64,000 nucleotides of DNA from NCBI RefSeq assembly GCF_050920415.1, contig NZ_CP169309.1; one strand, written 5' to 3'. The DNA comes from Escherichia coli (lineage in GTDB: Bacteria; Pseudomonadota; Gammaproteobacteria; Enterobacterales; Enterobacteriaceae). The stretch's first letter is position 1. Every line of letters begins with the position of its first letter. This document shows, piece after piece, positions 45,001 through 48,000 of the stretch. A program made the position numbers.

Positions 45001-48000
45001 ATTTTCTGGCGACAGCAAAGGTGCTGAAATTTCCGGAAGTGCAGATGCATGAAATCCTGAGTGACTTTGCCAGAATGATTCCGGCAGCACTGGATAACGT
45101 GAAGACTTCATTACCGACAGATTTTCCGGAGAACGTGGTGACGGCAGTTGAAACCAATGTGTTGAGGTTGCACCGTCGCTTAAGCTGAGAATACGGTATT
45201 AAGTAAGATATGGGGTTTGGCCGTTGTTAATGAGCAGGACAATCATGACCGCCAACGACTGGATTCTCCCTTGGTTTATGTTGGTGCGCATAATGTATAT
45301 TATGTTAAATAGCCTATGATGGTAAACAACTTCATATCTCTCCATTGCCTCTCACGAAAGGAACTGGACACACTGATCGAGCACGAATTACAACTGATGC
45401 TGGCTGAAGGCTTTGACAAGTCCCCTATTTCCGCCAAGGCTCTGCATATTCGGCTCAAGGCAAAAGGTATCGTTAACGGTGGTTTAAGTACGCTGAGCAG
45501 CCTTGAGCGAAAACGCCTAATTGCTGCCTATGTTGATCAGCAACTTGGCCCGTTGAATCTACGCCCAAAAGAAAAACAGCAATACGTCAACCGCAAAACC
45601 CGTCAGGCCTTGCTGGCCAGAAACCAGCAGTTGCAGGCGGAAGTCAGTGAACTGCAAGACCAACTGGCGCAGAATACCCTATCGTTGATAGAAATTGTCA
45701 AAGCGGTAAAAATCAATACGGTTATTCCGGTGGAAAGTCTGTTGCCAAACATGTAATTCGGGAATTACACAAGTCGTCATAATGCTGGTTATAATTTTCG
45801 GCAAAGGGCATGGACGATTTCTTTCCGTCATTCTGTATATTGCTTACCTTCCCAAATTTCTCCAACCGTTAGTTGGAGAAATTAGATGAGTCGTAAATCA
45901 TGAATAAACCCCTTGCTCTATTCGAAAAATGAGCATGGCAACTTTCAACACCCCCTCTTCTGAGTCCATTATCTCAGAGGGCGTTTTCCACTGTAATGCT
46001 CTGTTTGGTTCATTGCACCAGTTTAATGCTGCACTTTCGTTACCTTCAAAAAGATCAATAGCCTTTTGAAGAACGTCATTTTTTGTCAGCATGTTTTACA
46101 CCTGAAGACGTTTTGAGTGCTTCGATAAGACTACTTCGCTCTTCCTCTGTCATCCGGGATATGAGCAATGCAAGTTCTGCTGTTGTCTGATCATCACAAA
46201 AAAAGTAGTTCAACGGCACGTTTAACTCTGCCGCCATCCGTCGAATCGTATCAATATCGGGGACATGGCGCCCTTTCTCATAATGATTCATACGACTGCT
46301 AGCCGATGCGGGATCAAAGCCAACATGAAGAATTGATAATTGCCGTGCCGAGCAGAGAAAATGAATTCCGGAAACTTTCTCTTAAGCAAGATAAAAGACA
46401 TATTAAGATAAATGAAAAAATAAAAACACTGATTAGGATTGGTAATAAAAATATTACAATAAGGCAATGAATTTTAAAAAGGATTTGAAGTTTAATACAG
46501 TCATGAAAAAGAGAGGGCAAAGCCGACCCCGCCCTCTCCCTTCATGCACTGATAAGCCTCACTAATAGTGAGTGTTAGCAGCGCGTACCACTGTATGCTA
46601 GACCTGAAAAATATAATCTCAGTCAGTCCCAGATGCAACCTTTAACACTTCAACGCAACAAATTAAACAACGAATAGCCACAAACGTGTAGACAGTGCAC
46701 TGATACGGATAAAAGTAACGCTCCTGAATTGCTCAATCAATGATATATACCCTGTTTTACTGACATATCTGACAGCGGGTGGATTTCCTTCAATTATTGA
46801 TATAACACCATACGCACTACATCTGTCTCCACCAGAATATGAGGTGAAATTGTTGCGCACCGGTTAATCCGGGTGTACTGGTCAAACTGTTTTTACGGTG
46901 CGCCTGTTTTATAGCCTTCAGTTGCGCAATGCGTCGACTTCGCATGGCTTTCCTCATGACTGCCGCTTTACCATTGCGCAATTCGCCGATGTAGTCGGTG
47001 CCCCCCGGAAAATCAAACGGTTCTGGTTGTTCTCTGTACTGCTTCAGGGCGTATAGCCCGATACCTCAGCAGACGGGTTTTCCCCGGAGCGAGGCCTCTG
47101 GGGTTCATAATTAATCGTACAGCCAAAGTACCAAGCGTTCGGCCGGCTGGGCGGCCGGCTGGGCGGCCGGCTGGGCTTGCTGGTCAGTTTGTTCCAACAC
47201 ACATTAAGCATCTCCAGTCCGCTGGGCAGGCGGTCCGGCAGGCTGGTCAGCTGGTTATTACTCACATCAAGCACCTTCAGCCTGACGGGCAGCACCGGCA
47301 GATGGATCAGCTGGTTATTACTCACATTAAGCGTCCTCATATAGCCGGGCAGCTCCGGCAGGCTGCTCATGAGGTTAAAACGCACATCAAGCGTCACCAG
47401 CCCGGCGGGCAGCGCCGGCAGGCCGGACAGCTGATTATTACTCACATCAAGCATCACCAACCCGGCGGGCAGGACCGGCAGGCTGCACAGCCGGTTTCTA
47501 CTCACATCAAGCTTCTCCAGACTGGCGGGCAGCACCGGCAGGCTGCACAGCTGGTTTTTACACACATAAAGATGCTTCAGCCCGGCGGGCAGGACCGGCA
47601 GGCTGTCCAGCAAGTTTCTTCTCACATCAAGCTCCTCCAGCCCGGTGGGCAGCTCCAGCCCGGTGGACCTGAAGAGATTGTTTCCACCCACATTAAGGTG
47701 CTTCAGCCCGGCGGGCAGGACAGGCAGGCTGCACAGCTGGTTTCTACTCACATCAAGCTTCTTCAGCCCGGCGGGCAGGACCGGCAGGCTGTCCAGCAAG
47801 TTTCTTCTCACATAAAGCTCCTCCAGCCCGGTGGGCAGGACCGGCAGGCTGCACAGCTGGTTTCCACTCACATCAAGCTTCTCAAGCCCGGCGGGCAGCT
47901 CCGGCAGGCTGGTCAGCATCAGATTTGCCAGTTCTAGTTCCAGTGCCGAAGCTCTATTGCATGCTCTATTGTATATATATGCCTTCACCCTACTAAGAGC

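Follow-up and report, generated by a model that had tools for sequence, protein, structure and literature searches.

The closest described relative of the locus analysed here is the hipBA operon of Escherichia coli K-12, whose HipA toxin has 440 residues and for which several solved structures are available (3DNT, 3FBR, 2WIU, 3TPD and 4YG7). The high-persistence hipA7 and clinical alleles (G22S + D291A; P86L; D88N) are point variants of the same gene and, according to the mutation list cited in PMC12321266, the high-persistence mutations map to N-subdomain 1 and D291, and not to the C-terminus. It has also been described that hipA and hipB adjoin dif (PMC5862497). A HipA protein lacking its last six residues is already known, in the sense that RefSeq and GenBank accessions exist for it and that ETEC H10407, whose genome is published, has this truncation too; we found no experimental report on a C-terminally shortened HipA in the searchable literature.

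Here we describe such an allele in a stretch of 64,000 nucleotides of E. coli (contig NZ_CP169309.1), hereafter referred to as the window. The hipA gene occupies the same chromosomal place as in K-12, i.e., between an ECSE_1600-family autotransporter gene and dif. The features of the operon are listed below with their window coordinates; L002, L003, L014, L015 and L016 are the full-length alleles examined for comparison.

43483..43596, + strand: hipBA operators, four palindromes TATCC-N8-GGATA located 5' of hipB (exact matches at 43483, 43511, 43551 and 43579)
43618..43884, + strand: hipB antitoxin gene, 88 aa, intact, C-terminus ...QQDLEW (profile match and annotation)
43884..45188, + strand: hipA toxin gene, truncated allele of 434 aa, identical to WP_001125420.1 (open reading frame, translation, Pfam, alignment to structure chains)
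44028..44030, + strand: hipA codon 49, AGA (Arg), private synonymous change G>A at 44030 (G in L002, L003, L014, L015 and L016)
44535..44537, + strand: hipA codon 218, TCG (Ser), private missense change P218S, C>T at 44535 (allele comparison)
45186..45188, + strand: premature stop TGA at hipA codon 435, CGA>TGA, i.e., R435* (reading frame and allele comparison)
45189..45206, + strand: untranslated remnant of the ancestral tail (EYGIK) and ancestral stop TAA (45204-45206), matching ...SREYGIK* of the nearest full-length alleles
45283..45310, + strand: chromosomal dif site, 95 bp 3' of the new hipA stop, given as context outside the allele (single exact match to GGTGCGCATAATGTATATTATGTTAAAT, the dif sequence of K-12)

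Judged from its sequence, the window contains a canonical E. coli hipBA operon, in which every feature that defines the family at this level is present except for reference length. The palindrome TATCC-N8-GGATA, identified as the HipB operator from what is established for the K-12 hipBA promoter, has only one further match elsewhere in the 64-kb window. HipB matches the NCBIfam equivalog NF007271 with 184.5 bits (cut-off 79), covering profile positions 1-88 of 88, and is annotated (WP_001296726.1) at the same position in an identical locus. Its TAA stop codon overlaps the ATG of hipA by one base (TAATG, 43882-43886). In HipA, the Couple_hipA domain (Pfam PF13657) spans residues 6-103 (E 4e-27), and the HipA_C domain (PF07804) spans residues 149-401 and covers model positions 1-211 of 213 (E 3e-51); in addition, the protein scores 103.6 bits against TIGR03071, for which the cut-off is 27.8. 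The sole NCBIfam equivalog matched is the YjjJ model, at a score that lies far below the cut-off for the window and the full-length HipA alike, so that this comparison has no bearing on the truncation. Residues S150, K181, D309, H311, N314 and D332, which vary little or not at all among family members, do not appear in the list of differences from the K-12-like HipA and are unaltered. All 434 residues of the window protein can be aligned to the solved E. coli HipA chains (E about 1e-288), and the domains, the catalytic residues, the overlapping hipB and the four operators are all shared with K-12. Apart from the end of HipA, the module is intact.

The preliminary description of this DNA placed an early stop of hipA at 45186-45188, and this position is exact: the frame starting at the ATG at 43884 ends ...NVLRLHRRLS, followed by TGA. 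The in-frame continuation that it had read downstream is also there, namely GAA TAC GGT ATT AAG (EYGIK) and then TAA at 45204-45206. Likewise, the K-12 C-terminus that it gave was right, as the K-12-like allele of strain Evo1 (L003) ends ...VESNVLRLHGRLSREYGSK* and encodes 440 aa (...HGRLSREYGSK); the idea that the reference HipA might end at the same position as the window protein is thereby discarded. The window HipA, which ends at S434, lacks the reference-length C-terminus ...RLSREYG(S/I)K. Its stop was caused by a single transition, CGA>TGA at 45186, through which six residues (REYGIK) are lost: the first base of codon 435 is T in the window and C in all five full-length alleles examined. 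The claim that the stop is a point change and not a junction holds as well, since the window and the full-length alleles remain collinear across the stop and the old tail as far as dif, which rules out a junction or rearrangement at this site. What does not hold is that nearby substitutions formed part of the same event. Compared with K-12, such substitutions are indeed present (G431R and S439I); however, R431 and I439 are polymorphisms of the lineage, shared with many full-length alleles whose C-terminus is ...LHRRLSREYGIK, and they are separate from the nonsense change. On the other hand, P218S had been overlooked. The event is thus a single nonsense transition that occurred in a common allelic background, to which P218S has to be added. 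CGA435 is the sole codon among the last 12 that lies one transition away from a stop; in mutational terms, R435* is therefore the easiest route to a shorter tail.

The background on which the change arose could be traced by comparing alleles. The hipBA region of the window is 96.7% identical to the K-12-like allele and therefore belongs to a different allelic lineage; compared with the K-12-like HipA, the window allele has twelve substitutions and, owing to R435*, lacks residues 435-440. Among full-length alleles, WP_001544563.1 of strains 24A16CRGN010 (L014) and WP8-S18-ESBL-07 (L015) comes closest; the window differs from it by 7 nt in about 1.7 kb. WP_001544563.1 has Pro218 and Arg435 and is 440 aa long, and the window HipA is otherwise the identical protein, with the same HRRLS...EYGIK background; relative to it, P218S (44535) and R435* (45186) each correspond to a C>T transition. 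Around the stop, at least 59 complete genomes are one base off the window 61-mer, and in the one that was inspected (L015) the base in question is the C of codon CGA. The window HipA carries no known high-persistence substitution: the positions concerned (G22, P86, D88 and D291) are unaltered, and they are invariant in the ortholog alignment that includes the window allele.

In our view, the sequence comparisons make it probable that this allele is a clonally inherited and nearly neutral polymorphism in a hipBA module that is functional. One C>T change has turned the CGA codon of Arg435 into TGA, so that HipA is made as a protein of 434 residues without REYGIK. The piece lost is the final incomplete turn of the C-terminal helix and an apparently disordered tail of three residues; within the HipA family, this segment shows free variation in both length and sequence. 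The consequence would most likely be little or none, HipA still being a Ser/Thr kinase toxin neutralised by HipB, and the allele would have been kept by descent (drift) in one E. coli lineage. We infer that kinase activity, toxicity and HipB binding are retained. The suggestion in the preliminary description that toxicity or the interaction with HipB could be altered is not supported, given that the lost residues lie outside both Pfam domains and are not conserved, and that orthologues of 433-435 aa end alike.

The position of the lost segment within the protein can be described as follows. The truncation at residue 434 lies 33 residues past the end of HipA_C. An AlphaFold model of the matched full-length allele, generated with an alignment of 93 sequences and replacing an earlier run with 19 orthologs (pLDDT 56), has a mean pLDDT of 92.3 and a pTM of 0.92, and superimposes on the solved HipA structures 2WIU, 3DNT and 3FBR with TM scores of 0.96-0.99 in alignments spanning 436-437 columns. 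The last helix in this model comprises residues 416-437 and is followed by coil (438-440); the deposited HipA chains 3FBR and 4YG7 end at residue 437. Hence, R435* removes three ordered residues, Arg435, Glu436 and Tyr437, from the end of a helix of 22 residues, together with three residues that apparently are never ordered.

The lost segment is not conserved. In orthologues of 74-89% identity, the conserved block ends ...V-L-R-L-H-x-R-L and is followed by anything from nothing to 12 unrelated residues. Short orthologues from other Enterobacterales (P0114, P0091 and P0097; 433-435 aa; 74-82% identity) end at, or within one residue of, the end of the window HipA, their native C-termini being ...RLHARL (433 aa), ...RLHKRLG (434 aa) and ...RLHARLCK (435 aa). 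It should be noted that in these orthologues the short end is the native one, whereas in the window it goes back to a recent nonsense mutation, downstream of which the former tail can still be read. A more distant set consisted of 85 full-length homologues of 35-54% identity, retrieved from a search of 1.84 billion proteins. In the corresponding alignment, 78 of 86 sequences have a hydrophobic residue at position 433, and no conserved column follows it; the tail beyond 433 in the 85 homologues varies from 0 to 34 residues (median 5) and is one residue or shorter in 15% of them. Other C-terminal variants of HipA also occur in E. coli itself, namely a form of 438 aa ending REWY and another of 430 aa ending VLTMC.

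The main alternative is that the toxin is hypomorphic or otherwise altered, i.e., that loss of the helix end, alone or together with P218S, lowers the stability or activity of HipA or changes its neutralisation by HipB, resulting in altered toxicity or persister frequency. We regard this as rather unlikely, although the structural data do offer an argument for it and against neutrality: residues 435-437 are helical in the model, where they are predicted with high confidence, and they apparently form ordered helix in the crystals too. Tyr437 may be packed against the protein body, and the corresponding column is often hydrophobic in those homologues that have it (25 of 51, with L in 18, I in 4 and Y in 3). 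Against this stands the observation that the tail is absent or different in many homologues, including the close orthologues ending at 433-435 aa, and that none of the four positions affected in the high-persistence alleles has changed.

The companion change bears on the same alternative. Among the full-length E. coli alleles compared, all but one have Pro at position 218, the exception having Thr, and Pro218 is invariant in 17 orthologues of 74-99% identity, which would favour an effect of its replacement by Ser. However, column 218 is Ala in 68 of the 86 sequences of the distant alignment, indicating that a small residue is tolerated there, and this weakens the case for P218S as a strongly damaging change. 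In the AlphaFold model, residue 218 is located in a loop between the helix 199-212 and the strand 220-225.

R435* has arisen more than once. A search of complete genomes with the K-12-type 61-mer carrying T instead of C at codon 435 yielded exact matches in ETEC H10407 and in SEC470, a record of identical length. The hipA gene of H10407 (L019 528-1832, NC_017633.1) is annotated as encoding 434 aa (WP_001125437.1; CBJ01081.1), and this protein is present on 66 contigs. It differs from the K-12-like allele by T193M and R435* only, both of which are due to C>T changes, and the gene differs from that of the window by 45 nt; being on a K-12-like background and this distant from the window allele, it represents a separate origin of R435*. 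The two cases resemble each other in that H10407 has the same CGA>TGA change, that its hipA is also annotated as intact, and that it likewise carries one private missense change, which is T193M in H10407 and P218S in the window. Three 30-mer queries that require TGA, spanning the three backgrounds seen around the stop, together detected R435* in 3 of 5,426 complete genomes and in no other records. E. coli HipA proteins fall into three 90%-identity clusters with about 6,900 distinct sequences, and with such a number and such an accessible change, recurrence of a tolerated R435* is to be expected. The single-transition route and the independent recurrence thus fit a change that is mutationally easy and tolerated. 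Either mild counter-selection or a recent origin could account for the rarity of R435*.

These data may also be read in favour of an altered toxin, as the R435* allele is rare and its version in H10407 carries a missense change as well, at T193, a position that is invariant among close orthologues. Furthermore, hipA is often degraded in E. coli, internally deleted and split forms being found, so attenuation of the toxin may be tolerated or even favoured. On the other hand, with about 6,900 distinct HipA sequences, it is not remarkable that each allele has an additional private missense change. A related view, which we hold to be highly doubtful, is that R435* is not neutral, the trimmed helix end affecting HipA stability, HipA-HipA packing or neutralisation by HipB, and that P218S and T193M, both at conserved core residues, are second-site changes that compensate mutually with R435* in the two independent lineages; were this true, the two alleles would be natural persistence-modifying hipA alleles of an undescribed kind, one of them residing in a widely used reference pathogen. 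A paper on persistence in AIEC has H10407 among its strains, with no killing curve of H10407 and no remark on its HipA. Any role that the C-terminal tail of HipA may have would concern the lineage of the window and the ETEC reference strain H10407 alike.

It is also highly improbable that R435* is a first step in the decay of hipA, with the protein being non-functional or unstable. Decay of this gene is common in E. coli, as exemplified by the N-terminally cut copies of O157:H7, the split gene of strain 536 and many proteins of 343-418 aa. The window allele, however, has lost only 6 of 440 residues, all of them outside the Pfam domains; its domains are complete, unlike those of the O157:H7 and 536 copies; no further lesions are present in the identical protein, which is found on 95 contigs; hipB and the operators are intact; and PGAP calls the allele an intact hipA without a pseudogene flag. 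Returning to the reading of a near-neutral polymorphism, its biological weight is small, as we are dealing with a catalogued minor allele of a much-studied toxin gene for which the evidence favours a tolerated change. A practical implication is that automated comparisons with K-12 will flag this hipA as "truncated", which is not to be read as loss of function.

The allele is the inherited variant of one clonal lineage. The 95 contigs with an exact match to the 434-aa protein come from a large protein collection, and the protein has several GenBank accessions besides WP_001125420.1. In a contig index, the exact protein was found in 160 blocks, and all ten assemblies that were inspected translate to it; several complete genomes are among the independent assemblies encoding it. 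Over 7,305 bases, the carrier loci show 0-1 mismatches with the window in seven of these ten assemblies, and the remaining three are 99.8-99.99% identical when single indels are allowed. Of the 5,426 complete E. coli genomes in RefSeq, only that of MFDS1022581 contains the exact window 61-mer around the stop. This genome is unlike the window at the window start and again from position 46734 on, where it carries an IS2, and it is therefore an independent record of the hipA allele. A sequencing or assembly error in the window, raised in the preliminary description and a general possibility to which the single 61-mer match among the complete genomes might be thought to point, has next to no probability in view of the identical protein in many independent assemblies, some of them complete genomes, the same allele in the independent record MFDS1022581, and the RefSeq accession assigned to the 434-aa protein itself.

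Several observations concern the surroundings of the operon, the features of which are as follows.

37983-43403: ECSE_1600-family autotransporter gene, intact open reading frame of 1,806 codons, directly upstream of hipB
45316-45756, + strand: open reading frame of 146 aa, annotated as frameshifted in relatives
45898-46092, - strand: orphan MbcA/ParS/Xre-type antitoxin gene, with no toxin gene called alongside
47044-48651, - strand: open reading frame of 535 aa, with sub-threshold leucine-rich-repeat matches only
49344-51308, + strand: gene for an ankyrin-repeat protein of 654 aa (repeat match)

The autotransporter gene is annotated as frameshifted in Evo1 and in H10407, and is split in some of the carriers of the same hipA allele. 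As for hipA itself in other E. coli, O157:H7 matches only the last two-thirds of the query region, the gene is split in 536, and the forms of 343-418 aa number in the dozens. On the other side of the operon, the window, strain PKF11 and the K-12-like strain are collinear to the last base of dif and unrelated directly after it. No second dif-like site is present in the window, so an element integrated at dif (IMEX) is not supported as the cause of this divergence. The strain-variable stretch that follows dif (45316-51308) contains the last four open reading frames listed, and the repeat proteins encoded in this region near the terminus are eukaryote-like. At the place of the 535-aa open reading frame, 24A16CRGN010 encodes a protein named as an NEL-type E3 ubiquitin ligase domain protein. 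In MFDS1022581 (L017 46825-48052), the post-dif region is interrupted by the IS2 insertion, which has no counterpart at about 46734 in the window, and the first 3 kb of its sequence, a remnant of a prophage tail-fibre region, are unlike those of the window.
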